Under the pieces are notes generated by a model. That model ran no database searches. It saw only the letters and a list, made by a program, of their open reading frames with translations, and was not told where the DNA came from. A DNA stretch of 64,000 nt from Candidatus Zixiibacteriota bacterium (lineage in GTDB: Bacteria; Zixibacteria; MSB-5A5; WJJR01), in the NCBI GenBank assembly GCA_036397555.1, contig DASWIS010000001.1:120854-184853 (forward strand). The letters run 5' to 3'. Of this stretch, positions 21,479 through 48,583 are shown piece by piece. The position numbers and the translations under genes were made by a program. Every line of letters starts with the position of its first letter. Position 1 is the stretch's first letter.

Positions 21479-21704
21479 CGTCACGGGGGGTGCAGGTCCC
21501 GCCGCGAAGCGCAGACACGGCGAGATGCGACATGCTCCGCCAGGCATTGTCGGCGCCGCCGTGTCGCCTTCGTTGGCGGGTGACGAGAGAAGCTGCGGTT
21601 TCTTCATCGTCATCCCCACTTGCCCGTTCTACGGCATTGCATTAGAATAACTTGGATCGACACACGCAACGGCTTGTGGCCACGGCGGGGTCGATCCAAG
21701 GTCC

Positions 21705-22430
21705 ATGGACCAATCCGAGATTCAGCGGCTTCAAGAGGAAAACGCCAAGCTGCGCCGGCAGTTGGAACTGAGCCGGACGGCGTACGACTATCTGGTCCGA
21801 TTGGCGCACCATTTCTCCGGCGATGAGGTGGCCTTTGAGTCGCCCGATCAGATCCGGGCGTTCTGCGAACGGATCAAACGAGCGGTCGAGTCCTTAGTCG
21901 ACGGCATCAAGACGCTCATGGCCGGGCGCAAGCAGATGCAGCGCCAGTGGTCGTTGTATGCGTCGCAGCCACAGCAGGGCACGGCCTTTGTGCGCGTGGC
22001 AGAGCTCCGCGGCGATCTGGGGCGGTCGCTGTTGGACTGGCAGAACCCGGCTCTCGATGATCAGAACACGCGCCAACTGCAGAACTCCGTCAACGAGCTG
22101 AAACATCATCAATTGGCGCTGATGGCCGGATACGAGCGCTGTGTGCGCGAGGGGGCCTTGGCCGTACTGCGGGAGCTTGACCCCGACATTATAGAGGGAC
22201 GCGACGCGCCGGCCGCTGGAGGGCCGGAATCCCATGGGTCGTTGAAACAACTCCTGCCTTGGCGGACGGCCGGTTTGTTCCGAACATTCCGTCGGCGTTA
22301 CGCCGACTTGATTGCCGAAGACGCGCAGTGGTATCAATCGCGGTTTTTGCCGTTGTTTCGGCAGGGGTACAAGGAGTACATGTGGGCGGCGGTGGAGTCG
22401 GAATTATCCGGGGAGGGTCGACGGACATGA
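21705..22430 (+). CDS. hypothetical coiled-coil protein, first gene of the T6SS operon (uncharacterized T6SS-associated)
   Basis: 241 aa with N-terminal coiled coil (EIQRLQEENAKLRRQLEL). Its stop overlaps the tssJ ATG (ATGA). Confidence 0.5.
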   Translation: MDQSEIQRLQEENAKLRRQLELSRTAYDYLVRLAHHFSGDEVAFESPDQIRAFCERIKRAVESLVDGIKTLMAGRKQMQRQWSLYASQPQQGTAFVRVAELRGDLGRSLLDWQNPALDDQNTRQLQNSVNELKHHQLALMAGYERCVREGALAVLRELDPDIIEGRDAPAAGGPESHGSLKQLLPWRTAGLFRTFRRRYADLIAEDAQWYQSRFLPLFRQGYKEYMWAAVESELSGEGRRT

Positions 22431-22981
22431 GGCGGAACGCTACGATTGCGCATCGATCACGAGGAATCCGAATGATCGGCCTGGCCGAAGTGGGGCTTGT
22501 TTCAGTTGCCTTGGTGATCGGTTCAGGGTGCGGCTGGATCTTCGGCAAGCAGCAAAAGCCGATGCGTGTCGAAGTCGTCTTTGTCGGCAGCGATTCGCTC
22601 AACTTCGACGGCACGAAGTTTCAGCCGGTGCAGGTCAAGGCCTACATTCTGACTCGAGAGCACCGGTTCCTGGCCGCCGATGTGCGTGCATTCTTCAACC
22701 CGGAATTCGATCCGGGCTTCATGAGCGAGTTCGAGAAGGACATGCTGGGTTCGGCCACCGCGATTGTCGCGCCGGGGGAAAAGTCGTTGCCGATGCTCAT
22801 CGAGATTCCGTATGCCAAGCTGCACGATGTCAAGCCGATGATCGGCGTGATCGCCAACTTTGCACAGCCGCCGCGGGGTGAGCATCGTGAGCGCATGATC
22901 AAAGGCATTCCGAAGAAAAGCAAACAGATCGCCTGCTTTTCACTCGGAACCGACTGGGTGGAAGCGGGCAAGTGCCAATAG
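22427..22981 (+). CDS. tssJ: type VI secretion lipoprotein TssJ
   Basis: Lipobox LVIGSGCG. ~170-aa mature all-beta protein of TssJ size, positioned just before tssK-tssL-tssM. Confidence 0.6.
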   Translation: MRRNATIAHRSRGIRMIGLAEVGLVSVALVIGSGCGWIFGKQQKPMRVEVVFVGSDSLNFDGTKFQPVQVKAYILTREHRFLAADVRAFFNPEFDPGFMSEFEKDMLGSATAIVAPGEKSLPMLIEIPYAKLHDVKPMIGVIANFAQPPRGEHRERMIKGIPKKSKQIACFSLGTDWVEAGKCQ

Positions 22982-23017
22982 AACACCAATCACAGATCTG
23001 CGGATATTGCTGAACTG

Positions 23018-24373
23018 ATGCCGCCCTACCATCAAATCCTCTGGAGTGAGGGGCTTTTCCTCACCCAGCACCATTTCCAACAGTTTGATTCGTACATTGC
23101 CGGCGAGCGCGCGTTTTTGCTGCGCGCGCTGGTGCCGTTTGCGTGGGGACTTTCGCATCTGGCAATTGATGAGACCGCTGTGGAGAATCGGACGCTGACG
23201 GTCGGAGAGGTCGAAGGCATTTGGCCCGACGGGACCGCGGTCCGCGCGCCCTCAGTCGACGATTTGCCGGGAGGACGACCTTTCGAGTCGCTCTTTGCAC
23301 CAACCGCACGGGTGTTGCCGGTCTATCTGGGCTTGCCGCGACTGCGGCCCGGCACCGCGGGTGTGCAGATGGAGTCGGAGAAAACCCACGCGCCGACACG
23401 GTATGCGCGGGCCTTTGCACATGTTCCCGATGCGGTCACCGGCGAGCACGAGCGCGAGATTCCATATCTGAAAAAGAAGCTGGTGCTGCTCTTCGGCGGC
23501 GAGGATTTGGAAGGATACGATGTGTTGAAAATCGCCGAGGTGGAACGCAGCCCCGAGGGCAAAACACGACTGCGTCCATCCTATGTTCCGCCGCTCGTCT
23601 CGGTCCATTCGTCAAAGTATCTCACGACGGAACTGCGGGGCCTCTTGGAGACGGCATCGGCCAAATCCGAATCGCTGGCCGAGCAAGTCCGTCAGCGCAC
23701 GCCGACGCTGACCGAATTCTCCACGTCCGACTTTCCGAACTTCTTAAAGTTGCACACCGTCAATGCCTATATTCCATTGCTGTCGCAGTGGCACACGCAT
23801 CCACGCGCGCATCCGCTCGGCCTGTTTCAGTTGCTGGCGGCGTTCGCCGGGCACTTGTGCGGATTCAAAGTCGGTGAGCATCCACGCAATCTGCCCGCAT
23901 ATGATCACGACAACCTTGAAGGATCGTTCGCGCCCCTGGTTGTCAAGCTGCGCGAATTGCTGGAAGCGGTTGTTGAAGCGCGTTTTGTACGAATTCCGCT
24001 GGCGCAGCGCGACACGTCACGATTCGACGGACCCATCGAAGACGTATCGCTCTTTGAGCGCTCCGAATTCTATCTGGGCGTCGGCGCGGATTTGTCGGAA
24101 AGCAAGATTGCCTCGGAGTTTCCGCGTCACGCCAAGGTCATCTCCCCCGACAAAATGGAACGGCTCATCGGCGGAAATCTGCCGGGCGCCAATCTGATCT
24201 TCGTGCAACTGCCGCCGGCATCGGTGCCGCGCAAGGCGGGGATGGTGTACTTCCGCATCGATCCGCGCGGCGATCGCTGGGACTACATCAAGAAGGCGCG
24301 CCAGATCGCGATCTATGCCCCACCCGATGAATTCCCCGACTGGACTGTCGAATGTCTCGCGGTCGAGCGCTGA
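23018..24373 (+). CDS. tssK: type VI secretion baseplate protein TssK
   Basis: N-terminus ILWSEGLFLTQHHFQQFDSY matches the TssK signature (WSEGMFLxPQHFQQ). 451 aa. Confidence 0.85.
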   Translation: MPPYHQILWSEGLFLTQHHFQQFDSYIAGERAFLLRALVPFAWGLSHLAIDETAVENRTLTVGEVEGIWPDGTAVRAPSVDDLPGGRPFESLFAPTARVLPVYLGLPRLRPGTAGVQMESEKTHAPTRYARAFAHVPDAVTGEHEREIPYLKKKLVLLFGGEDLEGYDVLKIAEVERSPEGKTRLRPSYVPPLVSVHSSKYLTTELRGLLETASAKSESLAEQVRQRTPTLTEFSTSDFPNFLKLHTVNAYIPLLSQWHTHPRAHPLGLFQLLAAFAGHLCGFKVGEHPRNLPAYDHDNLEGSFAPLVVKLRELLEAVVEARFVRIPLAQRDTSRFDGPIEDVSLFERSEFYLGVGADLSESKIASEFPRHAKVISPDKMERLIGGNLPGANLIFVQLPPASVPRKAGMVYFRIDPRGDRWDYIKKARQIAIYAPPDEFPDWTVECLAVER

Positions 24374-24423
24374 GTTGACCGGAGCATTGACGACTTCACC
24401 ATCATGACCACGACCGTCATCAT

Positions 24424-25101
24424 ATGAGCACGACCGCACCGGGGGTCCTTCAACGCGCGTGCCGTCGCGCGTTTTCGCTGGTGCTCAACCTTCAGGACGG
24501 CGGCGATTTCGGCGACGCGGATGCACTTCGACGGCGTGTCACCGAAATGCTGGCATCGATGGAGAGCGACGCCAAGCAGGCCGGCGTCCTGGCAGAGGAT
24601 GTTCTCTCGGCACGATTCGCGCTGACCGCATTTATCGACGAGACGATCAACCGTTCCGATTGGCCGGGCAAATCGACCTGGGCGAATCGTCCGCTTTCGC
24701 TGGAACACTTCAATACCAACCGCGCCGGCGAAGAATTTTTCGAACGGCTCGCGGCGATTCGTCAGCGCCCCGAGGCGCAAACCGATCTGCTGGAAGTCTA
24801 TCACTGTTGTCTGGCGCTGGGATTCGAGGGACGATACGCACTGGCCGATCCGACTCACTTGCAGCAATTGGTCGAATCGACCATGCGCGAGTTGGAACGC
24901 ATTCGCGGCACATCGGCCGTACTGGCCCCGCATGGCGATCCACCCGCGCAAAGCGTCGCACAACTGGGCGGCGAAGTGCCGTTGTGGGTTTACTCGGGCG
25001 CGCTGGCCGCGTTGGCTTTCATCGTGTTCGTAATCCTGCGGGTCTTGTCGACGTCGCAGGCGCAGGAGACCGCCGACCGGCTGATTCGCCTGTTGCAATA
25101 A
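24424..25101 (+). CDS. tssL: type VI secretion membrane protein TssL (DotU/IcmH family)
   Basis: DotU-like core (FALTAFIDETI...LLEVYHCCLALGFEGRY) plus a single C-terminal transmembrane helix. Confidence 0.8.
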   Translation: MSTTAPGVLQRACRRAFSLVLNLQDGGDFGDADALRRRVTEMLASMESDAKQAGVLAEDVLSARFALTAFIDETINRSDWPGKSTWANRPLSLEHFNTNRAGEEFFERLAAIRQRPEAQTDLLEVYHCCLALGFEGRYALADPTHLQQLVESTMRELERIRGTSAVLAPHGDPPAQSVAQLGGEVPLWVYSGALAALAFIVFVILRVLSTSQAQETADRLIRLLQ

Positions 25102-25124
25102 CCACGCTCAGCATCGTCATCGCC

Positions 25125-28100
25125 ATGCTTGGCCTCATCCTCCCGTTTCTCAAGTCAAAGCTCGCGGCCGTGGGCGCGGTGCTGGTCATCGTCCTACTGA
25201 TCGCCATCGGCGGACCGAGAATCCTGGGGTCGCGCTGGCGGCTATGGTGCTATCTCGCCGCCCTGCTCATCCTCCTCATTTTCATCATTCATCTGGCGTT
25301 CAAGGCTTGGCGGGCGCGCAAGAAGGCGCGCCTGCTTGAAGGGTTTATGCAACGGCAGGCCGACGATCAGATGATGTCGGCGCGGCCCGATGCCCGCGAC
25401 GAGCTGGCCGCGATCAAGGAGAAACTCGACCGCGCCGTGACGGTTTTGAAGCAATCGCGTCTGGCCCGCGGACGGCGCGGCGCCGATGCGCTCTACCTGT
25501 TGCCGTGGTACATGATCATCGGTCCGTCGGCGGCCGGTAAATCGACCCTGTTGCGCAACAGCGGCCTGCATTTCCCGGCGGTCGATGTATCCGACGAGGC
25601 CAAAGTGCGCGGGCTGGGTGGCACACGCAACTGCGATTGGTGGCTGTCGACGCAGGGGATCGTGCTCGACACGGCCGGGCGATACAGTCTCACCGATGCC
25701 GCCGCCGACGACCGCGAAGAATGGTCGGGCTTTCTTTCCATGCTGAAGAAGGCGCGCGGCCGTGCACCGATCAACGGACTCATCCTCGCCGTGGCGCTCG
25801 ACGAAGTGCTCAAGCGCGGCAATGATGATTTGGAGACGCTGGCCAAGACTCTGCGCAGCCGCGTCGATGAATTGATCGTCAAGCTCGAGATTCAGTTTCC
25901 CATTTACGTCGTCTTCACGAAGTGCGACCTGGTCTCGGGTTTCAGCGAATACTTCCACGACTTCGGACGCGAGCAGCGCGAACAGATTTGGGGGTTCACG
26001 CGCAAGTACGAGCCCGTGACCGAGTCGCTGCAGCAGCAGTTCCTGCGTGAGGCGGGATACCTAGCTGCCGTTCTCGATCACCGTCGCTTGCGACAAATGA
26101 CGACGACCGTTCGCCCGATCCAGCGGCGCGGGGCGTATGTCATGCCGATCGAGTTCGCCAATGCCGCGCGCAAGCTGGCGCACTTCGTCGATGTGCTCTT
26201 CAGCCCCAACCCGTATCAGCAGAATCCGGTCGTGCGCGGCTTCTATTTTACGTCGGGCACGCAGGAAGGCGCGCCGATCGCACAGGTGATGGAGGCGATG
26301 CGCCGCGATTTCGGCCTCAGCGGCGGGATCGTGCCGCCGAGCGGCGCGGCGTCGGAGCCCAAACCGTACTTCATCAAGGATCTCTTCCAAAAGGTCATTC
26401 TTCCCGACGAGGCGAAGGTGCGTCCGCTGGGATCGGCGAGCCGTCGTCGGCGTTTCATCCGCTGGACGTGGATCGGGGCGCAGGCCGCCGCCGCCGGACT
26501 ACTCGTGTTATCTTTGTTCGGATCCTACCTGGCCAATCGCCGCTTCAATTCCGAGTTGCGCCGCACCACCGAGCACATTGCCGCCGCGTTGCCTCCCGGC
26601 GACGGATTTTCGCTGTCGAATCTCGACACGCTGGATATGCTGCGCGAAGCCCTGGTGCGGGCGGAAGCAGGACCCGGCCTCCAGCGCGGACTCGGGTTGT
26701 ATTCATCGCCGCCGGTCATTGCCGCTGCGCGTGATGTCTACTTCCGGAATCTGCAGCGGCTCTTGTTGCGTCCGCTCGATGTGCAGCTCAGGGCGCGATT
26801 ACGTGGGGAGTTCGATTTGAACACCGAGGCGGGGATCAACAGCTACTTCGAGTCGGCGATGGCCTATAAGATGATTACGCAACATTACGACTCGGTCTCG
26901 CACAATGTTTTCGAACTGATCGCGCAGGCCGATTCGGTGTGGCGTTCGCAGATTCCCATCGACGACCAGGCCCACTTCGGCGCGCTGATTGCCGATCAAC
27001 TCAATTACTACTGGTACCATCGTCCGGACACCACGCTGCGTTGGATGCGTGTCGCACCCGATCAGGCGCTGCTGGCCGACATCGAACGGGTTATGGCCGG
27101 TTTCTGGACCGTCGACCGGCTGTACCGGCGCATCATCAACGATGCCAACGGAACGCAGGGTCTGCTGACCATGCTCGATTTCGCTCCCGGGAGTGTTCGT
27201 CTGGCCGGGGCGCGGATCGGCGGCGCCTTCACCCGGGAGGGATGGAAGCTCGTTCTCGCCGATCGTATTCGCAACATGCCCGACGAGATCGCCGGCAACC
27301 CGGCGCTGCGGCAGACGCTGGGCCACTACGAGGACGACAAAATCCGCGAGGAGCTCACGCGTCGCTATGTCGATGAATTTCGCGGTGCGTGGCGAAAGTT
27401 CCTCGACTCGGTCATTGTGGTCAACTTCACCGATCTGACCGACGCCGCCTCCGGCCTCGATGAATTATCGCAGGACAATTCGCCGCTGTTATTGGTGCTG
27501 ACGCGCGCCTGGAATGAGAGCCGGTTGGACATCGGCGGCGATTACAAGAGCAAGATCGATGAAGAGTTCGTACCGCTCGCGCGCTTCCTCGGCGAAGCGA
27601 AACTGCCGGAAGGATCCCCCATTCCACGGGCCAGCTACATTGCACTGTTGGCCGAGCTGCCCAAGACGCTTGAAGAGCAGCGCGATTTGTTGCAGCAGCA
27701 GGCCAAGTGCGCACTACGTCTGCGCGCCCTGAAGACCGCGCTGGATCAACGCGAGCGCACGATCGCGCGATTGATCGACGGTTCGGCGGTCGCACGGTCC
27801 GCGTCGACGCTGCTGGTGCGTCCGCTGGATGCCGCGCGACGCAGCGCCTATGGCGAGATGTGCTCCTGCCTCAACCGCGTCTGGAATGAGACGGTTGCCG
27901 ACGAATTCGGTGCCGGGCTGGCGAGCGTCTATCCTTTCAATTCCACCAGCGAGGCCGAGGCATCGATGGCGCAGGTGGTATCGTTTTTTTCGACGGCGGG
28001 CATTTTTGCGTTCGAGGACGCCGAAGGTGCCCCGGCCCGTCAGGAGGGGATGTCGTTATCCGCCGATTACCAGCGGGCGCTGTCGGTCGCCGAAGACATC

Positions 28101-28520
28101 CGGCGCATGATCCAGGGCAGTAATCCGAGCGTCAACTTTACGTTGCGCGCGGCTTCGCAGGGTCTCTCCGGCATCCGCAAGCTGTCATTGGAATACGGCA
28201 GCACCCGTTGGGAATACGTTCCGGGCCCCGATGATCCGCGCGACTTCAAATGGCCGCAGGCGGGCGGGACCCATGTGTCGCTGAGCGTGGTGGCGGTCGA
28301 CCAGACATTGTATGCGATGCCGCGCCAAGAGACGGGCGAGTGGGCGATGCTGCGGCTCTTCGACGACGCCAAGTTCAGCGGCAATACCGTGCGCTGGGCC
28401 TTTCCGACCCAGGGTGGACCGACGCTGAACGCGCAGTACACCATCAGCGGCTCGGGTGCGCAGTTTATCAGCAGCGGGCACTTCTCGCGCTTCCAGTGTC
28501 CGGCCCGCGTGTGTCCGTAA
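25125..28520 (+). CDS. tssM: type VI secretion membrane ATPase TssM (IcmF family)
   Basis: Start MLGLILPFLK (N-terminal TM helices). Walker A GPSAAGKST. ~1130 aa. Confidence 0.85.
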   Translation: MLGLILPFLKSKLAAVGAVLVIVLLIAIGGPRILGSRWRLWCYLAALLILLIFIIHLAFKAWRARKKARLLEGFMQRQADDQMMSARPDARDELAAIKEKLDRAVTVLKQSRLARGRRGADALYLLPWYMIIGPSAAGKSTLLRNSGLHFPAVDVSDEAKVRGLGGTRNCDWWLSTQGIVLDTAGRYSLTDAAADDREEWSGFLSMLKKARGRAPINGLILAVALDEVLKRGNDDLETLAKTLRSRVDELIVKLEIQFPIYVVFTKCDLVSGFSEYFHDFGREQREQIWGFTRKYEPVTESLQQQFLREAGYLAAVLDHRRLRQMTTTVRPIQRRGAYVMPIEFANAARKLAHFVDVLFSPNPYQQNPVVRGFYFTSGTQEGAPIAQVMEAMRRDFGLSGGIVPPSGAASEPKPYFIKDLFQKVILPDEAKVRPLGSASRRRRFIRWTWIGAQAAAAGLLVLSLFGSYLANRRFNSELRRTTEHIAAALPPGDGFSLSNLDTLDMLREALVRAEAGPGLQRGLGLYSSPPVIAAARDVYFRNLQRLLLRPLDVQLRARLRGEFDLNTEAGINSYFESAMAYKMITQHYDSVSHNVFELIAQADSVWRSQIPIDDQAHFGALIADQLNYYWYHRPDTTLRWMRVAPDQALLADIERVMAGFWTVDRLYRRIINDANGTQGLLTMLDFAPGSVRLAGARIGGAFTREGWKLVLADRIRNMPDEIAGNPALRQTLGHYEDDKIREELTRRYVDEFRGAWRKFLDSVIVVNFTDLTDAASGLDELSQDNSPLLLVLTRAWNESRLDIGGDYKSKIDEEFVPLARFLGEAKLPEGSPIPRASYIALLAELPKTLEEQRDLLQQQAKCALRLRALKTALDQRERTIARLIDGSAVARSASTLLVRPLDAARRSAYGEMCSCLNRVWNETVADEFGAGLASVYPFNSTSEAEASMAQVVSFFSTAGIFAFEDAEGAPARQEGMSLSADYQRALSVAEDIRRMIQGSNPSVNFTLRAASQGLSGIRKLSLEYGSTRWEYVPGPDDPRDFKWPQAGGTHVSLSVVAVDQTLYAMPRQETGEWAMLRLFDDAKFSGNTVRWAFPTQGGPTLNAQYTISGSGAQFISSGHFSRFQCPARVCP

Positions 28521-28537
28521 CAACGCGTAATTCATCG

Positions 28538-29509
28538 ATGCCGACGGTGTCTCCCAGCATCGGGTTGTTCGGCAAGCTGCCGTCACATCCCGACTTTATC
28601 CGCCACATGGCGGGCGGCGAGGCAGCGCGCCGGCTTGATTCATGGCACAGCGACGGTCTGGCACACTTGCGTCGGATTCATCGTGGCGACTGGGAATCGC
28701 GCTTCGATGCGGCCCCTCCGGTGCAATTTGTCGTGCAAGCCGAATCGCAGCATGCGCTGGTCGGCGTGTGCGCGCCGTCGCGTGATTCCACCGGGCGTCG
28801 GTATCCGATCTCGGTGTTCGCGACAATTCCGGTGGGACGCAGCAACGCACGCGGCGAATGGCTGCCGGTCCTTTGCGGTCAGTTCCTGAATTTGGTCCGT
28901 CGAGAACTGGGCGCGGCATTGCGGGCGGAGTCGGGCGCCGATTTGACACAGTTTGCGGATCGCATGGTGCCGTTCCTGGACAAAGCGATTCTCGCGGACA
29001 GTCGGTCGACTCCCGAGACGATCGCAAACGCCACCATGCAATCGTTTTGGACCGGCATCCTTGGCGACTTTGCGGATCGCCGCAAGTACGTCGTCATCAA
29101 AAACCTGTTCGGTGTGATGGTTCCGCTGCGCGGAGGCGACACGACCCGACTGAGCGCCGCGCTGAATCTCCCGACTGGAGGCGATCCGGATGAGGCGCAC
29201 GTCGTCAGTGCGCTCTGGGCGCGTCTCTGCACCGCCGTTTCCGGCCATCCGCGGTTGCCGAATCTTTCCCTCTTTTGGCGCGAATCAATGGCGACACCGC
29301 AGCGCGGGGAGTGCTTTATTGCGTTGCGACCGCCGTCGGTTGGGCTGTGGTGCACCGTCATCGCCGGATCGCCGGCGAACGATTCATTCCTTGAGACCGA
29401 CACACCGAATGACGAACCGCAGGCGGCGCGTTCGGTGTTGGGGGAGCGCCTGGCATCGGCGCTCGATGATCCGGATCTGAACATGCTGGCGTTTATCAAA
29501 CGAATCTGA
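28538..29509 (+). CDS. tagF: type VI secretion-associated protein TagF (ImpM/DUF2094 family)
   Basis: N-terminal GLFGKLPSHPDFI matches the TagF hallmark (GFFGKLPxxGDF). Confidence 0.75.
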   Translation: MPTVSPSIGLFGKLPSHPDFIRHMAGGEAARRLDSWHSDGLAHLRRIHRGDWESRFDAAPPVQFVVQAESQHALVGVCAPSRDSTGRRYPISVFATIPVGRSNARGEWLPVLCGQFLNLVRRELGAALRAESGADLTQFADRMVPFLDKAILADSRSTPETIANATMQSFWTGILGDFADRRKYVVIKNLFGVMVPLRGGDTTRLSAALNLPTGGDPDEAHVVSALWARLCTAVSGHPRLPNLSLFWRESMATPQRGECFIALRPPSVGLWCTVIAGSPANDSFLETDTPNDEPQAARSVLGERLASALDDPDLNMLAFIKRI

Positions 29510-29528
29510 AACGCCGATTCACTGTGCG

Positions 29529-31079
29529 ATGAGCGAGCTGGCTGACATCACAGGATTGGGCAAGACCCCGATCGCCGGAGAGAGTCCGGTCGGGGCATCG
29601 GTGCAGTTCGACGAGGACTATGAAAAGCTTCGCGCCGAGATGCAGAAGCTCGACTCGGTCACCGGCGAGACGGTCGAGTGGAGTTTGGTCGAGAATACCG
29701 GTGTCGATATCCTGCAAAACCGATCCAAGCATCTCTTAGTCGGCATCTACCTCTCGCTGGCGCTCTTTGAACGCCACGACTATGCCGGTCTGGCTGCCGG
29801 ATTTTCGATCCTGCGCGATCTGGTCACGACTTTCTGGGACACGATGGAGCCGCCGCTCAAACGCAAACGCGGCCGGATCGAGGGGTTCGTATGGCTGTGC
29901 GAACGGCTCGGCACGTCGATGCCCGACCGCAAGCCCACGGCCAGCGAGATGGAGGCAATGAAAACCTGCAAGGCCGTCCTGGGAGAACTTGGCGCTGCGC
30001 TCAATGAGAAGCTCGCCGATGATGCCCCGGGGCTGGCCGACTTGGAACGGCTGGTCAACGCGCACATCAAGGACCTTGAGGCGGCGGTCAAAGCCGCCGA
30101 AACCCGCAAGGCCCAGGCAGAGAAAGTCGCCTCGGGAGATGTTGACGATACCTCGTCCCCCGATGACGCGCGCAAAGTCTACCAGAACATTCGCACGAAG
30201 ATCGCCAAGATTTGCCAGATTATCCGTCGCGCCGCCCCGCAAGACCCGATCGCATACCGGTTGTTGCGCGCCTCAACCTGGGGGCCGCTGCAGACTTCGC
30301 CGCCGGATACCAGTGGGGTCACGCAGATCCCCGCCCCCGGCCCTGAGATTCGGGCGCGTCTCGATACCCAAGAAGCCAAGGCAGAGTGGGGGCCGATGCT
30401 GGAGACAATCGAAACGGCATATGATAACTCCCCGCTCTGGCTGGACTTGCAGCACTATCTTCTGAAAGCGTTCGATGAGCTGGGTGAGCAATACGACCTT
30501 GCCGCCGAGGCGGTGCGAGCCGAAATCGTCTCATTATTACGCCGCCTTCCCGACCTGACTGTCTTGGAGTTTGCCGGCGGAGTGCCCTTCGCCGACCCGC
30601 AGACTCGCAAGTACTTAGATAAGATGGTCAAGGAGATGTCCGCTCCCCAGGGGGGTGGTCCGGGCGCCATTACCGGCGCCCCGCCCGGACTAGAGGAGGC
30701 GGTCGAAGAGGCGCGGCGTCTGGCCGGCAAAGGCAAATTGACTGAGGCGGTGGGGCGCATGCAGGCGGGAATCTCTTCCACCGGTGAGCATCGGGCGCGG
30801 TTTCTCTGGCGGCTTGAATTGGCGCGACTTTGCCTCGACTCAGGTCGTGTGATCCTCGCGGCGCCCCTGTTGGAAGAACTGGAAACCCTCATTGATCGGC
30901 ATAATCTCGAGGCATGGGAGCCAGATCTTTGCAAGACGGTCTATACGGCCTTGCTGTCGGCGCGCCGACTTTTGCTGAAAGACACGCGGAAGGCGACGCC
31001 CGAGCTGATTCAGAAGACCAATTTGCTTCAGGACCGTTTGTCACGCCTGGACCCAACGGCTTTATTATCGATGGAATAA
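29529..31079 (+). CDS. tssA: type VI secretion protein TssA (ImpA N-terminal domain)
   Basis: ImpA_N-like N-terminus (PIAGESPVGASVQFDEDYEKLRAEM). 516 aa. Confidence 0.75.
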   Translation: MSELADITGLGKTPIAGESPVGASVQFDEDYEKLRAEMQKLDSVTGETVEWSLVENTGVDILQNRSKHLLVGIYLSLALFERHDYAGLAAGFSILRDLVTTFWDTMEPPLKRKRGRIEGFVWLCERLGTSMPDRKPTASEMEAMKTCKAVLGELGAALNEKLADDAPGLADLERLVNAHIKDLEAAVKAAETRKAQAEKVASGDVDDTSSPDDARKVYQNIRTKIAKICQIIRRAAPQDPIAYRLLRASTWGPLQTSPPDTSGVTQIPAPGPEIRARLDTQEAKAEWGPMLETIETAYDNSPLWLDLQHYLLKAFDELGEQYDLAAEAVRAEIVSLLRRLPDLTVLEFAGGVPFADPQTRKYLDKMVKEMSAPQGGGPGAITGAPPGLEEAVEEARRLAGKGKLTEAVGRMQAGISSTGEHRARFLWRLELARLCLDSGRVILAAPLLEELETLIDRHNLEAWEPDLCKTVYTALLSARRLLLKDTRKATPELIQKTNLLQDRLSRLDPTALLSME

Positions 31080-31175
31080 GTCGTGCATCGGCGACCGTTA
31101 ACCTTTAATATAAAGAGCGACTTTTGGCCGTTTGATCAGTCGAACCGCAGGACCACACTGACGAGGTGATGGCGT

Positions 31176-31658
31176 ATGGCGCAGGAAGGATCGGTCGCCC
31201 CGAAGGAACGAGTTAACATCGTCTACAAGCCGGCAACCGGGGTCGACGAAGAACGCGAGCTTCCCTTAAAACTCTTGATGCTGGGCGATTACACCCAACG
31301 TCCCGATGACACCCCATTAGAGGAGCGCAAAGTCATCAACGTTGACAAGGACAACTTCAACGATGTGATGAAGGCGCAGAATCTCGCTGTTCAGGCAAAC
31401 GTCAAGAATGTCTTGGCCGAAGAAGAAGGCGCTGAGATGCCGGTCAACCTGAAGTTCGAGAATGTCAAAGACTTCGGGCCGGAAGCGGTCGCCCAGCAGG
31501 TCCCCGAGCTTAAACGGCTCCTGGAGTTGCGCAATGCGCTCCTGGCGCTAAAGGGACCCCTGGGCAATGTCCCGGGATTCCGCAAGAAGATCATGGACAT
31601 CATGTCCGACGATGCCGCGCGCGACAAGCTGATGAAGGAGTTGGGCATCGGGGGCTGA
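31176..31658 (+). CDS. tssB: type VI secretion sheath small subunit TssB (VipA)
   Basis: ERVNIVYKPATG...LPLKLLMLGDYT...NVDKDNFNDVM canonical TssB. Confidence 0.9.
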   Translation: MAQEGSVAPKERVNIVYKPATGVDEERELPLKLLMLGDYTQRPDDTPLEERKVINVDKDNFNDVMKAQNLAVQANVKNVLAEEEGAEMPVNLKFENVKDFGPEAVAQQVPELKRLLELRNALLALKGPLGNVPGFRKKIMDIMSDDAARDKLMKELGIGG

Positions 31659-31700
31659 GACCGCCGAAACTGAATCGAGTCGAAACAGGAGAAAGCACAG

Positions 31701-33185: not shown

Positions 33186-33249
33186 GACGCTGGCGGGGGG
33201 CGCCGACGCCAAGTGAGCACACCAGCAATCCCGTAGGAGGGTTTACGTC

Positions 33250-33735
33250 ATGCCAATGCCATTTTACATGACGCTGGAGGGTGAGGCGCAGGGTGCGATC
33301 GAGGGTTCGTGCGACCAGAGCGGGCGCGAGGGGACCATCCTCTGCCAGGCGCTGCAACACGACATCACGATCCCCCGCGATCCGCAGACCGGACAGCCGT
33401 CGGGTCTGCGCGTCCACAACCCGCTCGTCGTCACCAAAGTGTTCGACAAGGCCTCGCCGAAGCTGTACCAGGCGCTGACCTCCGGTGAGCGCATGAAGGA
33501 TGTCACGCTCAAGTGGTACCGCATCGACAAGGCCGGCATCGAGGAGCACTACTTCACGGTCAAGCTTGAAGATGCGATCGTCGTCTCGATGAGACCCTGG
33601 GTGCCCAACTGCCTCGATCCCCAGTATGAATCGCTGGGCCACATGGAAGACGTGTCCTTCACGTACCGTAAGATCATCTGGACCTGGGAGCCGGATGGCA
33701 TCGAATCCGAAGACGATTGGCGTCAACGCAAATAG
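33250..33735 (+). CDS. hcp: Hcp (TssD) tube protein
   Basis: FYMTLEGEAQGAIEGS... typical Hcp N-terminus. 161 aa. Confidence 0.85.
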   Translation: MPMPFYMTLEGEAQGAIEGSCDQSGREGTILCQALQHDITIPRDPQTGQPSGLRVHNPLVVTKVFDKASPKLYQALTSGERMKDVTLKWYRIDKAGIEEHYFTVKLEDAIVVSMRPWVPNCLDPQYESLGHMEDVSFTYRKIIWTWEPDGIESEDDWRQRK

Positions 33736-33848
33736 CGCTGGTGCCCTCGGATTCATTCGACATTGACGCGGTCCATCGGCGGCTCCGGACAGCATCCGGG
33801 GCCGCCGTTTTCATTGGCGTGACGATTCTCTTTGCTGACGGCAGGCGC

Positions 33849-34271
33849 ATGAACATCAACGAACGGACATTGCTGGAACGGCTCTCCGACCCCAATCCGG
33901 AAGGGGATCGACGGCTCCAGGTCGATGTCAGCCGGCTGAAACGATCGGTTCTCTTGCATCTGTCGCGCATGCTCAATTGCCGTCATGGGCATGCGCCGGC
34001 GCAGCCCGATTACGGGATTCCCGACCTCAACGAATTCATGTACGCCTTTCCCGATTCGATCACGCCGATGCGGCAGGCGATCCAGGCCTCCATCGAGAAG
34101 TATGAGCCGCGCCTGAAGAATGTGCGCGTCATCTGGTCGCCCGATGAGGATGACCCGCTCAATGTGCGCTTCGAGATCACCGCGCGTCTGATCACGGAGA
34201 AAGACGATCTTCCGGTGGCCTTCTCGACCAAAGCGAGCGGGGGCTCCGGGCTGGCGGTGGAGGAGAGTTAG
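33849..34271 (+). CDS. tssE: type VI secretion baseplate protein TssE (gp25-like)
   Basis: Internal start MNINERTLLERL...RLKRSVLLHLSRMLNCRHGH...DYGIPDL matches the gp25/GPW family. Confidence 0.8.
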   Translation: MNINERTLLERLSDPNPEGDRRLQVDVSRLKRSVLLHLSRMLNCRHGHAPAQPDYGIPDLNEFMYAFPDSITPMRQAIQASIEKYEPRLKNVRVIWSPDEDDPLNVRFEITARLITEKDDLPVAFSTKASGGSGLAVEES

Positions 34272-34313
34272 CAGTCGCGTCTGTTGTCCCGACGTCCAGT
34301 TCATTCACTGAAT

Positions 34314-36062
34314 ATGTTCAACAAATACTACCAGGACGAACTCTCCTACCTGCGCGCCATGGGACGCGAATTTGCCGGGGCCCATCCGCAACTGGCACCG
34401 ATGCTCGCCGAAGCCGGGACTGACCCGGATGTCGAACGGCTGTTGGAGGGGTTCGCGTTTCTCACCGGACGCATCCGTCAGCGGCTCGACAGCGAACTGC
34501 CGGAGCTGACCCATGCGCTGGTCGATCTTTTGTGGCCGCACTATCTGCGTCCGGTGCCGGCGATGTCGATTCTACAATTCGAGGCGGCCGCGACGCTGCA
34601 GGAGACACAGATCATCAAGCGCGGCACATCGATTGAATCGGCGCCGGTCGAGGGGACGCGCTGCCGTTTTCGCACGACTGCCGACGTGCGGCTGTATCCA
34701 TTTCGCATCAGTGACGTTAAGCTCGATGTCCCGTTGTCAAAGGCGGCGTCGCTCACCGTCACGTTCGCCGTCGGCGAGCAGGTCAACATGTCGGGACTGG
34801 ATTTGGGTCCGCTGCGCTTGTTTCTGCACGGTGACGCGCAACCGGTCGGACTTCTGTACTTGTGGCTGTGTCGTCATGTTCAGTCGGTCACCCTGCAATC
34901 GGGATCACAAAGTGCCTCGCTGCCGGTGTCAGCCGTTGTCCCCGCCGGGTTCGATGACGCCGAAGCGTTGTTGCCGTATCCGTCGGAATCGTTTGCGGCG
35001 TATCGACTGCTGCAGGAGTTCTTCGCGCTGCCGGAGCGGTATCACTTTATCGACATCGTCGACTTGCGTCCGCTGGCGCAGATGGAGTCCGTCCGGGATT
35101 TCTCCTTCGTCGTCACCTTCGATGAGAATCCCCCCGGTGAACTGCGCATCGGCCGCGACATGATCCGCGCCGGTTGCACGCCGATCGTCAATCTTCAGGG
35201 CATGCGCTCGGCGCCGGTGACGGTCGATCACGAACGCACCGAATACCGTTTGCGCGCCGATGCCTCCGACCCCGACCACTTCGAAGTCTTTTCAGTCGAC
35301 AAGGTGCTGGGATGGACCAAGGGGACACTGAAAGAACGTGAATACAAACGCTTCTTCTCGTTTTCGCATGTTCCGGGTACCGAGGGCGCCGATGGCGACC
35401 CGTATTACAACGTGCGCCTGCGTCCAGCATCGGTAGGCGCCGGTACTGACGTCTATTTGTCGTTTGTTGCCGAGTCGGAGTCCGGTGTCATGCCGCCGAC
35501 TGAGACGGTCGCCGCCGATCTCACCTGCACCAATAGAAATCTGCCCGCGAAGCTGCATCCCGGCGAGATCAACGTGCCCACTTCGCAGTCGCCGGCGTTC
35601 GCCACATTCAACAACATCACGCGCGTCACGCCATCGGTTGCACCGCCGTTGGAGGGACGTCTCCTGTGGCATTTGGTCGCACACCAATCGCTGAACTACC
35701 TGTCGTTGGCCGATGTCAATTCGCTGCGTGCGATGCTGGGGATGTACAACTTCCCGGCGCTCTCCGACCGTCAGGCGGCCCGCACCGGACGACAGCGGTT
35801 GGAGGGCATCACCAGGGTCAAGGCCGCGCCTGATGACATGATCCGCCATGGGGCGGCCCATCGCGGCATCGCGGTCGATCTGGAAATGGACGAGGAGAGC
35901 TTTGCCGGTGAAGGGGACATGTATTTGTTCGCGTCGGTATTGAATCGATTTTTTGGCCAATATGCCACGATCAATGCGTTCACGCGGCTGTCAGTGCGCG
36001 GGACGCGCCAGGGAGCGATCTACCAATGGCCGGCGATGCTGGGATCCCGACCACTTCTGTAG
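34314..36062 (+). CDS. tssF: type VI secretion baseplate protein TssF
   Basis: MFNKYYQDELSYLRAMGREFA... canonical TssF N-terminus. Confidence 0.85.
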   Translation: MFNKYYQDELSYLRAMGREFAGAHPQLAPMLAEAGTDPDVERLLEGFAFLTGRIRQRLDSELPELTHALVDLLWPHYLRPVPAMSILQFEAAATLQETQIIKRGTSIESAPVEGTRCRFRTTADVRLYPFRISDVKLDVPLSKAASLTVTFAVGEQVNMSGLDLGPLRLFLHGDAQPVGLLYLWLCRHVQSVTLQSGSQSASLPVSAVVPAGFDDAEALLPYPSESFAAYRLLQEFFALPERYHFIDIVDLRPLAQMESVRDFSFVVTFDENPPGELRIGRDMIRAGCTPIVNLQGMRSAPVTVDHERTEYRLRADASDPDHFEVFSVDKVLGWTKGTLKEREYKRFFSFSHVPGTEGADGDPYYNVRLRPASVGAGTDVYLSFVAESESGVMPPTETVAADLTCTNRNLPAKLHPGEINVPTSQSPAFATFNNITRVTPSVAPPLEGRLLWHLVAHQSLNYLSLADVNSLRAMLGMYNFPALSDRQAARTGRQRLEGITRVKAAPDDMIRHGAAHRGIAVDLEMDEESFAGEGDMYLFASVLNRFFGQYATINAFTRLSVRGTRQGAIYQWPAMLGSRPLL

Positions 36063-37033
36063 CCGAAGCGCTGCGGGTTCGCGCCCCGCACTTCGCCTTC
36101 ATGCAGGCGATGTGGCTGCTGCGGCGCGCGTATGGTGATGCGCCGGAGCCGGGGTTTCAGGGGCCGCCCTCGGAGGAGTTTGTCCGTTTACGACCGAGCG
36201 CGTCGTTGGCGTTTCCTCCGGGCGAGATCGAAGACTTCACGGATGATTCCCCGACACCGCCGGCGCGGCGTCTGACGTCGACGTTCCTGGGACTGTATGG
36301 CGCCCACTCGCCGTTGCCGAATTTCTACTCGGAACTGGTGCTGCAACGAATCGCTGACGACGACAACCACGCGTTGCGCGCCTTTCTCGATATTTTCAAT
36401 CACCGTCTCCTGTCGTTGTTGTATCGCGGGTTGCTGAAGTATCGCGGGCATCTTCTGTTCGAACGCCACGCCCGCGATGAATGCTCGTGGCGGCTGTTTG
36501 CTCTCTCCGGGTTCGATCAGCCCGAGGCACGTCCCCAAACGGGTGTGCCCGCGCCGATGCTATTGCGATTTGCGGGGTTGTGGAGCCAGTCGCCGCGTTC
36601 GGCGTCGGCGGTCGGCGCTATTCTCCGGACGCTGCTGCATCCGCTGCCGGTCCGAATCGCGCAATGCGTGCCGCGCTGGGTTTACCTGCGCGATGACCAA
36701 CGCACGCGGTTGGGAGCCCATGCCTGCCGTCTCGGCGACGATTGCACGATCGGCGCGCGCGTGCCCGATTGCACGGGAAAGTTTCGTATCCAGGTCGGCC
36801 CGGTGAATCTTGAAACCTACCGCCGCTTTCTGCCCGGGCAACAGTTGCTCGATACAGTGCGCCGGCTGGCGGGATTGGCCGCCTCGGATGCATTGGCCCA
36901 TGATGTCGAGATAACGCTGGATCGCGGCGACACCGCGCATTTGGGTGTCCGCCTGGGGCAGGAGGGCGCGCTGGGCTGGACCGCAGGATTCTTTGAGCGC
37001 TCGACAACCGAGGTGGCAATCACCTTTTCTTAA
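36026..37033 (+). CDS. tssG: type VI secretion baseplate protein TssG
   Basis: 335 aa, overlaps the tssF 3' end by 37 nt. TssG-like FAFMQAMWLLRR... Confidence 0.8.
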   Translation: MAGDAGIPTTSVAEALRVRAPHFAFMQAMWLLRRAYGDAPEPGFQGPPSEEFVRLRPSASLAFPPGEIEDFTDDSPTPPARRLTSTFLGLYGAHSPLPNFYSELVLQRIADDDNHALRAFLDIFNHRLLSLLYRGLLKYRGHLLFERHARDECSWRLFALSGFDQPEARPQTGVPAPMLLRFAGLWSQSPRSASAVGAILRTLLHPLPVRIAQCVPRWVYLRDDQRTRLGAHACRLGDDCTIGARVPDCTGKFRIQVGPVNLETYRRFLPGQQLLDTVRRLAGLAASDALAHDVEITLDRGDTAHLGVRLGQEGALGWTAGFFERSTTEVAITFS

Positions 37034-37078
37034 AGAGTACATTGCAGGCGGGGATGTATCCCCGATAGGACACACCTC

Positions 37079-39754
37079 ATGGCGAAACTGGAATTGCGGC
37101 CGTTGCTGGGCAAGCTCAATGCGTACGCAAGCGGGGCGGTCGAGGCGGCGGCGGGGCTGTGCGTGGCGCGGGCCCACTACGAGGTGACCGTCGATCACAT
37201 CATGCTGAAGCTGCTGGACAATCCGCAGGCCGATGTCCAGCAGATACTCCGGCACTTCGAGATCGATCCCTCGCGCGTGATCGGCGCGTTTCAACACAAT
37301 GTCGAAGGGCTGCGCGCGGGCAACACCGGCAAGCCGGTCTTTTCGCCGTTGTTGTCCGGCTGGCTGCAGCAGGCATGGCTGGCCGGATCGGTCAACCTCG
37401 GTCACGGTGTGCTGCGCTCCGGTACGCTGCTCTTGGCGCTCATGGACAATCGCGCGCAATACCTCGTCGGCGGCGAAGTGCTCGAATTGGATGCCGTCGA
37501 CTCCGAAGTTCTGCTCAAGCAGTTCGACGACATCACGGCCGTATCGATGGAGACGCAGCAGGTCCGCGCAGCGGCCGCATCCGGCGTAGCGGAGGCGGGC
37601 AAGGGGACGCCCGGCGGCGACACGGCACTGGGACGATTCTGCATCGACTTTACCGCGCGCGCCAGACAGGGTGGGATCGATCCGGTCTTTGGACGTGACA
37701 CTGAGATTCGTCAGATGGTCGATATCCTCGCCCGGCGTCGGAAGAACAATCCGATCGTTGTCGGCGAGCCCGGTGTCGGCAAAACCGCGGTTGTCGAGGG
37801 GTTGGCGCTGCGCATCGCCGAAGACGATGTGCCCGATCTGCTCAAAGGCGTGTCGCTGTTGGGGCTCGACCTCGGGCTCTTGCAGGCGGGAGCCGGTGTC
37901 AAAGGCGAGTTCGAAAACCGTCTCAAGCAGGTCATTCACGAAGTCAAGTCATCGGGCGTCCCGATCATTCTGTTCATCGACGAGGCACACACAATGATCG
38001 GCGCCGGCGGTGCGGCCGGTGGATCGGACGCCGCCAATCTGCTCAAACCGGCTCTGGCACGCGGCGAGTTGCGCACGATCGCGGCCACCACGTGGTCGGA
38101 ATACAAGAAGTACTTCGAGAAAGACCCGGCGCTGGCACGGCGTTTCCAACTGGTCAAGCTCGATGAACCGTCGGTTTCCGATACCGTTGTCATGCTGCGC
38201 GGACTGCGCGAGCGTTATGAGAAGGCGCACAACGTGCACATCCCCGATGACGCGCTGGTCTCGGCGGCCGAGCTGTCGGGACGGTACATTTCCGGACGGC
38301 TGCTCCCCGACAAGGCGGTCGATCTGATCGACACGGCCGCGGCGCGCGTGAAGATCGGCATCTCCTCGCGTCCGAATGCGCTGGAGGACTTGACCAGGCA
38401 GATTCAAATGCTCACGCGGGAACTCAACGCACACCGACGCGATCTGATCGGGCGCGGCGACGATGACGATGTGCGCATCAAAGACCTGAACGCCGCGATC
38501 GCGGACAAACAGTCGGCATCGGTGTCACTGGAGAAACAGTGGCAGACCGAAAAGGAAGCCGTCGACCAGTATCTCGCGATACGTCAGCGGCTGATGGGGG
38601 GCAATGGCGACGGCCAGGAGACCAATCCTGTCAAAGACCCGGCGGTTTCCATACCGGGCGATCCCAAACAACTCAAGGCGGCGAAGGCCAAGCTCGAATC
38701 GACACAAGGTTCCTCGCCGCTCATACCATTGGAAGTCACGCCCGAGGTGATCGGCAAGGTCGTGGCTGACTGGACCGGCATTCCGGTCGGCAAGATGGTC
38801 AAAGATCAAGCCGAGGCGATCCTGACATTCGAGGAGCGACTCAAGGAACGCATCAAGGGACAGGACTTCGCGGTCTCCGCGGTCGCGCATGGTATCCGCG
38901 CATCGAAAGCCGGTGTGCAGGATCCCGGCAAACCGATCGGCGTGTTCTTGTTTGTCGGTCCCTCCGGAGTCGGCAAGACTGAGACCGCGCTCGGCGTCGC
39001 CGATCTGCTCTTCGGCGGCGAGCGCTTCATGGCGACGATCAACATGTCGGAGTTTCAGGAAAAGCACACCGTGTCACGCTTGATCGGATCACCGCCGGGG
39101 TATGTCGGCTACGGCGAGGGCGGCGTACTGACCGAGGCGGTGCGACAGCGGCCGTACTCCGTCGTTCTGCTGGACGAAGTGGAGAAGGCCGACCCGGAGG
39201 TCATGAATCTCTTCTACCAGGTGTTTGACAAGGGAATGCTCTCCGACGGTGAGGGGCGCGAGATCGACTTCAAGAATACGGTCATGTTCATGACCTCCAA
39301 TCTGGCGACCGATGAAATCATGGCCTTGGGCATGGCCGACCAACCGCCGACGCATGAAGCCGTTGTGTCGGCGATCCGGCCCATTCTCAATCGCCATTTC
39401 AAGCCGGCGCTCGTCGGGCGGATGACCATCGTTCCGTTTTTCCCGCTGAAATCCGACGCGATCGGACGGATCGTCCGTCTCAAGCTCGAACGCGTGGCCA
39501 AACGTCTGAACGAGAGCCACAAGATGGCGCTGTCCTACGACGATGCCGTTGTCGATCAAATCACCGCGCGCTGCACCGAGGTGGAGACCGGCGCGCGCAA
39601 TATCGACAACATCCTGTCCGGCTCGCTGTTGCCGCGCATCTCGACGGAAATCCTGCAGCGCATGACCGCAGGGCCGTTGCCGGAACGGCTGACGTTGGGC
39701 ATCGACGCTGTGTCGGAGTTTACTTTGGTGTTTGGTGACGGCAACGCAGCATAA
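37079..39754 (+). CDS. clpV: type VI secretion AAA+ ATPase ClpV (TssH)
   Basis: Clp N-domain, two AAA+ modules ([18 protein letters not shown]). 891 aa. Confidence 0.9.
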
Positions 39755-40355: not shown

Positions 40356-40373
40356 GTCGGGTGTTGATGGGAT

Positions 40374-48485: not shown

Positions 48486-48583
48486 GGGCCGTCTGCGGCG
48501 AATCTGCGGGGTGCATAGTAACCCCCTCACCCAACCGTCTTCGACATTGCCGTGGCAATACACAATGGAGTATCATCCAGCGC

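Follow-up and report, generated by a model that had tools for sequence, protein, structure and literature searches.

Here we describe a type VI secretion system (T6SS) locus that lies in a stretch of 64,000 nucleotides (nt) of contig DASWIS010000001.1, from an uncultured bacterium of the candidate phylum Zixibacteria. We call this whole stretch the window, and all positions are counted from its first letter. Based on the listing of open reading frames (ORFs) and on a crude gene model that uses GC3 (the G+C content of third codon positions), a single uninterrupted array of genes runs on the + strand from 21705 to about 49363 (~27.7 kb). The array has 23 genes, with intergenic gaps of -37 to +113 nt, and all 23 ORFs are intact. 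The window ORFs were scanned with Pfam and NCBIfam profiles at their curated cut-offs. The gene starts given here are those of gene callers on identical metagenome contigs, with the exception of tssJ, for which 22427 is used and not the callers' 22472. By these profile matches, the window holds a complete T6SS locus of 13 core genes together with tagF. These genes are given below with the gene at the head of the array (aa, amino acids); where one score is set against another, the second is the cut-off.

21705..22430, + strand: tagH-C, 241 aa; PF20232 T6SS_FHA_C, 39.1 bits against 23.7, profile positions 14-179 of 180
22427..22981 (alternative start 22472), + strand: tssJ, outer-membrane lipoprotein; PF12790, 27.7 bits against 27; TIGR03352, 35.8 against 31.6
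23018..24373, + strand: tssK, baseplate subunit; PF05936, 382 bits; TIGR03353, 358 bits
24424..25101, + strand: tssL (DotU family); PF09850, 189 bits; TIGR03349, 182 against 90
25125..28520, + strand: tssM (IcmF family), membrane-complex subunit; TIGR03348, 612 bits against 388; IcmF-related_N, IcmF-related and IcmF_C domains
28538..29509, + strand: tagF, 323 aa, TagF_N with a ~190-aa C-terminal extension; PF09867, 89 bits; TIGR03373, 87.8 against 41.2
29529..31079, + strand: tssA, long form with ImpA_N and T6SS_VasJ (a VasJ-type C-terminal domain); TIGR03362, 336 bits against 230
31176..31658, + strand: tssB, sheath small subunit; PF05591, 179 bits; TIGR03358, 176 bits
31701..33185, + strand: tssC, sheath large subunit; TIGR03355, 707 bits
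33250..33735, + strand: hcp (tssD), tube protein; PF05638, 130 bits; TIGR03344, 190 bits
33849..34271, + strand: tssE, gp25-like baseplate subunit; PF04965, 63 bits; TIGR03357, 112 bits
34314..36062 (alternative start 34284), + strand: tssF, baseplate subunit; TIGR03359, 631 bits
36026..37033, + strand: tssG, baseplate subunit; TIGR03347, 293 bits
37079..39754, + strand: clpV (tssH), AAA+ sheath-recycling ATPase; TIGR03345 (ClpV1 equivalog), 1180 bits against 885; the ClpB model stays below its own cut-off
40374..42536, + strand: vgrG (tssI), spike, 720 aa; TIGR03361, 631 bits; Phage_GPD, Phage_base_V, Gp5_trimer_C and Gp5_C domains

An original prediction, which was made from the letters and translations of this DNA, had named tssJ, tssK, tssL, tssM, tagF, tssA, tssB, tssC, hcp, tssE, tssF, tssG and clpV, and each of them was found on the + strand, at or near its predicted position, with a score above a curated Pfam or NCBIfam cut-off. 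It had also placed the complete core within 21705-39754. This stands for 12 of the 13 core genes and the accessory tagF, and fails for the core gene vgrG, which lies outside that interval at 40374-42536. The predicted ATGA that couples the head ORF to tssJ is present at 22427-22430, and this coupling holds only for the tssJ start at 22427. The longer TssJ form that starts there has a positively charged signal-peptide N-region before the lipobox IGSGC, in which the cysteine is Cys35. The overlap of tssF and tssG is 37 nt (36026..36062), as had been predicted. The start of tssE is most likely the 33849 of the metagenome callers and not 33717. The frame from 33717 would cross a hairpin at 33777-33815, described below, and this hairpin therefore favours the start at 33849. 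TssL is tail-anchored by a single hydrophobic segment in its C-terminal part (residues 184-213) and has no peptidoglycan-binding extension. TssM has a Walker A motif (GPSAAGKS) at residue 133, and ClpV has two Walker A and two Walker B motifs.

Judged by gene content and TssC similarity, the system is of type i, because TssJ, TssL, TssM, TssA and ClpV are present and TssC is far closer to the Myxococcus xanthus and Vibrio cholerae proteins than to IglB of Francisella. Among the sheath chains in the PDB, TssC scores 748 bits with M. xanthus 5urw and 733 bits with V. cholerae VipB; its score is 381 bits with TssC1 of the Pseudomonas aeruginosa H1 system, 277 bits with IglB (type ii) and 397 bits with chain 9n4v. 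The references of established type in this comparison are of type i and of type ii, the latter being IglB. The prediction of a T6SS-i thus agrees with the TssC similarity, and TssK, TssL, TssM, TssA and TagF all have profile support.

For the subtype, TssC identities were measured against all PLSDB plasmids, and the subtype labels were taken for each bacterial family from PMC9113992, in which a single 371-kb Pseudomonadaceae plasmid is classed as i1. The identities of TssC and the labels are as follows:

P. frederiksbergensis 371-kb plasmid: 68% identity, i1
Campylobacter: 55% identity, i1
Cronobacter/Enterobacter: 46-48% identity, i2
Rhizobium/Leisingera: ~42% identity, i3
Ralstonia: ~41% identity, i4b
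Pseudoalteromonas/Mesorhizobium: 39-40% identity, i5

This ranking by similarity points to an i1-like subtype. The locus resembles i1 loci (V. cholerae VAS, M. xanthus and the deltaproteobacterial type) in its 13 core genes and in its long TssA with a VasJ-type C-terminus. It differs from these references in its Zixibacteria host, in the presence of tagF, in a TagH that lacks the forkhead-associated (FHA) domain and in having no VasH-type sigma-54 activator in the locus. The gene order of V. cholerae is presumably different from the order found here. The order K-L-M-(tagF)-A-B-C-hcp-E-F-G-clpV-vgrG is common to many loci of Desulfobacterota, Myxococcota and Planctomycetota. A P. aeruginosa H1-like (i3) system was considered at first from the gene order, as we take the H1-T6SS to be ordered fha-tssJ-K-L-M-tagF and tssA-B-C-hcp-E-F-G-clpV-vgrG, which is the order here and served as a lead only. 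Both systems have TagF and a partner of the TagH family; however, the H1 genes form two divergent operons, whereas here all genes are co-directional and ppkA, pppA and tagQRST are absent. The H1-like assignment was ruled out by the TssC scores, where the 733-748 bits with VipB and M. xanthus TssC are about twice the 381 bits with H1 TssC1, by the plasmid ranking, and by the class of TssA, which is TIGR03362 here and TIGR03363 in H1.

Downstream of vgrG the array continues with a module that may load an effector onto the spike, with the effector itself and with three further ORFs:

42548..42988, + strand: DUF6484 protein (TvpC-like; position of PA0096); its own Pfam match is sub-threshold, E = 0.019
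43049..44125, + strand: DUF2169 protein (TvpA/Tap2-type chaperone for PAAR-like domains); PF09937, 313 bits
44130..45155, + strand: PRK06147 ketoacyl-synthase-like protein (TvpD; position of PA0098); NF004798, 362 bits against 342
45155..46279, + strand: Tse7-like predicted effector, 374 aa; N-terminal PAAR-like DUF4150 (PF13665, 121 bits) and C-terminal Tox-GHH2 HNH/EndoVII nuclease (PF15635, 54.6 bits)
46276..47241, + strand: 321-aa ORF, candidate immunity protein in the Tsi7 position; ATGA-coupled to the effector (-4 nt junction)
47238..48485, + strand: TIGR02270-family HEAT-repeat protein, second candidate immunity or accessory protein; TIGR02270, 394 bits against 207; HEAT_2; coupled to the 321-aa ORF
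48473..49363, + strand: 296-aa ORF, rich in Arg, Gln and Lys in its tail and probably the final gene of the array (-13 nt junction)

The DUF6484 protein has 4340 homologues, and PF20093 is found in most of the 120 of them that were listed. A DUF6484 gene stands directly after vgrG also in four of the loci that were fetched for comparison (these carry L numbers; here L022, L023, L025 and L026). The roles of the DUF6484, DUF2169 and PRK06147 proteins are taken from PMC13373197. In the P. aeruginosa vgrG1b cluster, TvpC-like, TvpA and TvpD chaperones were proposed to load the PAAR domain of Tse7 onto VgrG1b (PMC13373197, PMC4067218, PMC9846239), and the exchange of TvpC for VgrG and the pre-complex were only modelled, for P. 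aeruginosa (PMC13373197). The same order of VgrG, DUF6484, DUF2169, PRK06147 and DUF4150 + Tox-GHH2 effector, followed by two more genes, is found in the vgrG1b cluster PA0095-PA0101. The VgrG of 720 aa falls inside the 700-800 aa reported for Tvp-associated VgrGs (PMC13373197). Unlike PA0095-PA0101, the module is joined here directly to the main cluster, and no family could be detected for the ORF that takes the place of Tsi7.

The Tse7 architecture was described previously (PMC4067218, PMC9846239). In the effector of the window the motifs are intact (TTGHH at residue 201 and HGVLH at residue 245), and an identical 374-aa protein exists in GenBank. The 321-aa and 296-aa ORFs have no Pfam or NCBIfam match, and no hydrophobic segment was found in any of the three ORFs that follow the effector (46276-49363). 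Immunity proteins with HEAT repeats have been reported (PMC3482391). Of the first two coupled ORFs downstream of the effector, one or both most likely confer self-immunity to a nuclease that acts in the cytoplasm, as judged by their position only. The effector together with its coupled candidate immunity ORFs argues for interbacterial antagonism. Genes of the TIGR02270 HEAT-repeat family also occur right after vgrG in L035, L036 and L070 (at ~20.7-21.5 kb), which are Eisenbacteria-labelled, unclassified and Desulfoluna loci; this suggests that the family is a recurrent accessory or immunity component of T6SSs.

In most related loci clpV abuts vgrG. Here one more ORF is found between them:

39783..40355, + strand: 190-aa ORF, candidate Tlde1-like peptidoglycan effector; PF10908 sub-threshold, 14.7 bits against 30.1, E = 0.042

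Its family is tiny, with 11 representatives among 1.84 billion proteins in a full HMMER search, and has the conserved motifs GGPIPPG, HPDGG and LYIH99PxG...TEGC112. The AlphaFold model of the protein has a predicted local distance difference test score of 78 and a predicted template modelling (TM) score of 0.75, from a shallow alignment of 11 relatives. In a Foldseek search of this model against the PDB, the top 23 matches are all of YkuD/L,D-transpeptidase fold; these are weak matches, with E values from 2.9e-3 to 0.4 and TM scores of 0.33-0.41 (best TM 0.41). Like Salmonella Tlde1 (PF10908), the protein is small and cytoplasmic, has its gene within a T6SS cluster, carries a His...[ST]-x-G-C motif and is predicted to have a YkuD-like fold; it differs in falling below the Pfam threshold, in its very small family and in having no adjacent immunity gene. 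We lean towards a Tlde1-like peptidoglycan effector, against which the missing immunity neighbour has to be weighed. When the profile of this ORF was compared with PDB chains, the sole match was intimin, inside an unrelated extension of one aligned homologue, and it was rejected. In the Ignavibacteria-labelled loci L012 (18188-18853) and L025 (17949-18599), a different conserved ORF of ~220 aa occupies the slot between clpV and vgrG and is a candidate cargo.

The head gene of the array had been described as an uncharacterized coiled-coil ORF, and tagH had been listed as missing from the window together with fha, ppkA, pppA and a sigma-54 activator. The first description has to be given up, as the protein matches PF20232 and an identical protein in GenBank is named a T6SS-associated FHA domain protein. 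The second is wrong for fha/tagH for the same reason; it stands for the rest, as no kinase, PP2C phosphatase or sigma-54 activator was found among the scanned ORFs of the window. The protein, TagH-C, has a short N-terminal coiled-coil-like stretch and no hydrophobic segment. With the full-length model TIGR03354 it reaches 28.1 bits, where the cut-off is 120.25, and it aligns to profile positions 329-418 only. No FHA domain (PF00498) was found in the 241-aa protein or upstream of its ORF, and the gap to the outer-membrane beta-barrel gene is 227 nt, so that space for such a domain is lacking. Compared with TagH/Fha proteins (TIGR03354), PF20232 is kept, and the gene is directly 5' of tssJ and shares its operon with tagF, whereas FHA is absent and the length is 241 aa instead of the ~500 aa seen in the gammaproteobacterial (Thiotrichales) loci L067 and L074, which have the canonical FHA and PF20232 domains. 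A search of 5.8 billion proteins gave 38 TagH-C homologues of 197-321 aa, those of Zixibacteria metagenome-assembled genomes (MAGs) included; all 38 have PF20232 and PF00498 was never found. In the Planctomycetota relatives L031, L034 and L038 the locus edge truncates the head ORFs, and these loci stand outside the comparison. Since 38 of 38 homologues carry PF20232 only, while L067 and L074 keep FHA, the FHA-less TagH is by this comparison a lineage feature rather than a local truncation. A sequence search of the head ORF against PDB chains gave nothing useful.

The tagF gene is an accessory gene of a post-translational repressor family, and its product has weak matches to the solved TagF chains 2qnu (PA0076), 6iz8 and 9t0n. 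It was found that TagF represses the T6SS by sequestering TagH in a way that is independent of phosphorylation (PMC5995506, PMC13584744). With no FHA phosphothreonine reader in TagH-C and neither a PpkA nor a PppA gene in the window, the canonical switch, which runs by threonine phosphorylation through TagH, cannot operate. A phosphorylation-free TagF/TagH-C checkpoint is probably the most economical reading of the regulation, in which assembly would be gated post-translationally by TagF acting on a TagH that consists of the C-terminal part only.

The alternative that survives best is a canonical phosphorylation-regulated T6SS, for which the rest of the genome would supply the kinase, the phosphatase and a separate FHA protein, the head gene then being a minor accessory or a truncated remnant. 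The window covers only 64 kb of the genome, which leaves room for such genes, and control need not involve phosphorylation of TagH, as the kinase target in Agrobacterium is TssL and not TagH (PMC5995506, PMC13584744). Yet the recurrence of the FHA-less form in all the homologues, with PF20232 only, does not fit a remnant, and the head gene is intact and abuts tssJ or overlaps it by 4 nt (start at 22427). Moreover, several systems, including that of V. cholerae, need TagH yet have no kinase (PMC5995506, PMC13584744), with tagE and tagG both absent (PMC13584744). We therefore consider phosphorylation-based control rather unlikely and prefer the TagF/TagH-C checkpoint.

By combining these data, we hold it to be highly probable that the chromosome of this uncultured Zixibacteria bacterium carries a complete, apparently functional type i (i1-like) T6SS with a spike-loading module, a Tse7-like nuclease and a probable TagF/TagH-C gate. 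The steps of its mechanism are taken from well-studied homologues. TssJ, TssL and TssM would form the envelope-spanning membrane complex, and TssE, TssF, TssG and TssK would form the baseplate together with VgrG. TssA would prime the polymerisation of the Hcp tube and of the TssBC sheath. The VgrG spike would be capped by the PAAR-like Tse7-like effector, which would be loaded by the DUF6484/TvpA/TvpD module and whose C-terminus is a predicted GHH2 HNH nuclease; the 190-aa protein with its predicted L,D-transpeptidase-like fold would be a second candidate effector. Contraction of the sheath would bring Hcp, VgrG and cargo into a neighbouring cell, and the contracted sheath would be recycled by ClpV.

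Several points weigh against this picture. The sequence is MAG-derived, and all functions are inferred by homology. TssJ is the weakest profile match of the named genes and is barely above both of its cut-offs. The subtype is based on a similarity ranking to few references and on a neighbour-joining tree of the fetched loci. Immunity is assigned by gene position only. The Tlde1-like call combines a sub-threshold Pfam match, weak Foldseek matches (E ~3e-3, TM ~0.4) and a motif, for an ORF with no adjacent immunity gene. Finally, only 64 kb of the genome were examined, and the remainder could hold genes for PpkA/PppA, a further FHA protein or transcriptional regulators.

A second alternative is that the locus is a relic, either silent or in decay, or that it serves a purpose other than the killing of bacteria, such as an anti-eukaryotic role, metal uptake or predation. 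The ecology of Zixibacteria is poorly known and the T6SSs of some organisms have non-antibacterial roles, both of which would suit this option. However, none of the 23 ORFs is broken and the catalytic motifs are conserved. An identical TssC is found on 21 contigs from several metagenomes with neighbouring proteins that are 98-100% identical, which is consistent with purifying selection. In addition, the combination of a PAAR-like nuclease and coupled genes for cytoplasmic candidate immunity proteins is the signature of interbacterial effector-immunity pairs (PMC3482391, PMC9846239). A relic or a different use is thus quite unlikely, and a functional antibacterial system is the reading that we keep.

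Regarding the host, the TagH-C, TssC, NrdJ, CBS-domain, ThiL, PRK06147, effector and TIGR02270 proteins have identical copies in GenBank, all from one candidate division Zixibacteria MAG, where they are consecutive entries from HEX9749778 to HEX9749814 (locus tags VGB22_) on one 185,158-bp contig. The locus is already auto-annotated there with T6SS names. The host identity is based on these exact-match GenBank labels. In the same window, downstream of the array, lies a gene for a protein of a type IX secretion system (T9SS):

57852..63857, + strand: 2001-aa protein with at least six HYR domains, a FlgD-Ig-like domain and a T9SS type-A C-terminal sorting domain

The sorting domain, which had been predicted, was found in the last 200 residues of this ORF (TIGR04183, 36.3 bits against 23), and the product is a large T9SS cargo, at the surface or secreted, whose gene shares the contig with the T6SS; T9SS machinery genes, at which no test was aimed, are not in the window. 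The host had been predicted to be non-proteobacterial, of the FCB (Fibrobacterota-Chlorobiota-Bacteroidota) group or Gemmatimonadota-like; the identical proteins of the Zixibacteria MAG and the T9SS cargo bear out the FCB part and not the Gemmatimonadota part.

Among 185,579 species genomes, the nearest TssC proteins come mostly from Zixibacteria-labelled MAGs, with 76-90% identity and the same gene order from tagH-C to vgrG. This order is shared by at least six MAGs in that identity range, most of them labelled Zixibacteria and a few labelled Acidobacteriota, Ignavibacteria or unclassified. In the neighbour-joining TssC tree, which has no support values, these loci form one clade. Its sister is a clade of three MAGs, two labelled Eisenbacteria and one unclassified; Polyangia/Acidobacteriota come next, and Vibrio and Thiotrichales are distant. 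Beyond the Zixibacteria and Eisenbacteria clades, the nearest TssC proteins are those of Desulfobacterota, Myxococcota and Planctomycetota, with 65-71% identity. Three loci nest inside the Zixibacteria TssC clade under other labels, namely L007 (contig DATKYL010000473.1, "Acidobacteriota", 6.5 kb, 90% identical) and the "Ignavibacteria" MAG loci L012 and L025; this conflict between label and tree suggests mis-binning or mislabelling in the public records.

The original prediction had left the matter of horizontal acquisition to a comparison of GC and codon usage with the flanking genes, and this comparison gives no sign of recent transfer. The pooled GC and GC3 are 0.611 and 0.756 for the 16 genes from tagH-C to vgrG, compared with 0.612 and 0.761 for 20 flanking genes. 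The relative synonymous codon usage of the block correlates with that of the flanks at 0.984, where the split halves of the flanks range over 0.948-0.988, and the tetranucleotide profile of the block matches the flanks as well. Neither an integrase nor direct repeats nor a boundary flanked by a tRNA were noticed at the block edges; a tRNA-Arg is found 2.7 kb upstream of the block, with three genes between. Because the composition matches the flanks and the synteny is conserved across Zixibacteria MAGs, these data argue for a locus that is long resident and not recently acquired. Its ultimate origin may still go back to an ancient transfer between lineages of soil and sediment, as judged from the nearest outgroups. 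The weakest alternative, a recent genomic island or a mis-binned or chimeric contig from a proteobacterial or deltaproteobacterial-type genome, which would make a T6SS-i in the FCB group an artefact, could draw on the patchy and often mobile nature of T6SS loci (PMC9113992), on the next-nearest TssC proteins and on the noisy MAG labels just described, but it is highly improbable in view of the indistinguishable composition, the bare block edges, the presence in the same contiguous window of a protein with T9SS type-A sorting, as is typical of the FCB group, the identical copies of the window's housekeeping genes on the same Zixibacteria MAG contig and the locus order and single TssC clade shared by several independently assembled Zixibacteria-labelled MAGs.

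Two candidate elements of expression control were also noted in and before the array:

21620..21648, + strand: candidate sigma-70-like promoter (TTGCCC, 17-nt spacer, TAGAAT), 57 nt 5' of the ATG of the head gene
33777..33815, + strand: intrinsic-terminator-like hairpin between the hcp stop and tssE, with a perfect 13-bp stem (11 G-C pairs) followed by the T-run TTTTCATT

The first is the sole sigma-70-like match on the + strand in 21300-41000 and is suggestive by position only. The hcp-tssE intergenic region folds with -49 kcal/mol (z = -2.0). In the promoter and terminator scans the total numbers of matches do not exceed those of shuffled controls. The hairpin is a candidate internal attenuator that may set the stoichiometry of tube and sheath relative to the baseplate; if it attenuates, the abundant tube and sheath genes would be expressed more than the baseplate genes. 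The Rfam search of the window gave only one transfer-messenger RNA (tmRNA) and one tRNA, and no riboswitch or small RNA was found in or near the locus.

Other features of the window lie outside the array. An alpha/beta-hydrolase gene (49409-50308, +) starts 45 nt after the last array ORF, and its product has an N-terminal lipoprotein-like signal (LLLTGPGC); it may be either a T6SS effector of lipase type or an envelope enzyme with no link to the system. The tmRNA (50676-51037, - strand; Rfam 173.6 bits; tag peptide ADVYSYALAA) is found just downstream of the array and this gene, and may be the point where the locus ends on its right-hand side; an integrase was not seen close to it. A 1195-aa ORF (51684-55271, +) has a coding-like GC3 of 0.78, and its only Pfam/NCBIfam match is DUF7015 at E = 0.035, which is at noise level. 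Upstream of nrdJ, the region 8781-11659 (+) encodes a di-haem protein with two CxxCH motifs, a small protein of Rieske-like type that has a Tat-like signal, and a predicted outer-membrane protein; from the translations only, this may be a redox module that is unrelated to the T6SS.

The machinery, the spike-loading module and the type of effector are all well known, and what is unusual here is only the host phylum and the FHA-less TagH. In a 2022 survey, T6SSs were assigned to seven phyla, and Zixibacteria is not among them (PMC9113992); in the literature that was searched we found no paper that discusses a T6SS of Zixibacteria. A wider proposal, which is possible and which we put forward as doubtful, is that Zixibacteria, possibly with the sister Eisenbacteria clade, hold a long-resident, vertically inherited T6SS-i1-like lineage in which TagH is permanently FHA-less and its C-terminal domain is kept beside TagF. 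If true, the PF20232 domain alone would be what nucleates assembly and what TagF sequesters, and the phosphorylation-free TagF/TagH-C switch would be an ancestral or an alternative mode of control. Given the T9SS cargo on the same chromosome, it would also mean that FCB bacteria outside Bacteroidota use a type i and not a type iii T6SS.

The locus adds a candidate phylum to the hosts of the canonical type i T6SS. An FHA-less TagH that stands beside TagF is a natural deletion experiment, and it could help to define the poorly understood C-terminal domain of TagH. For the biology of these soil and sediment bacteria, the finding suggests contact-dependent killing with a nuclease effector.

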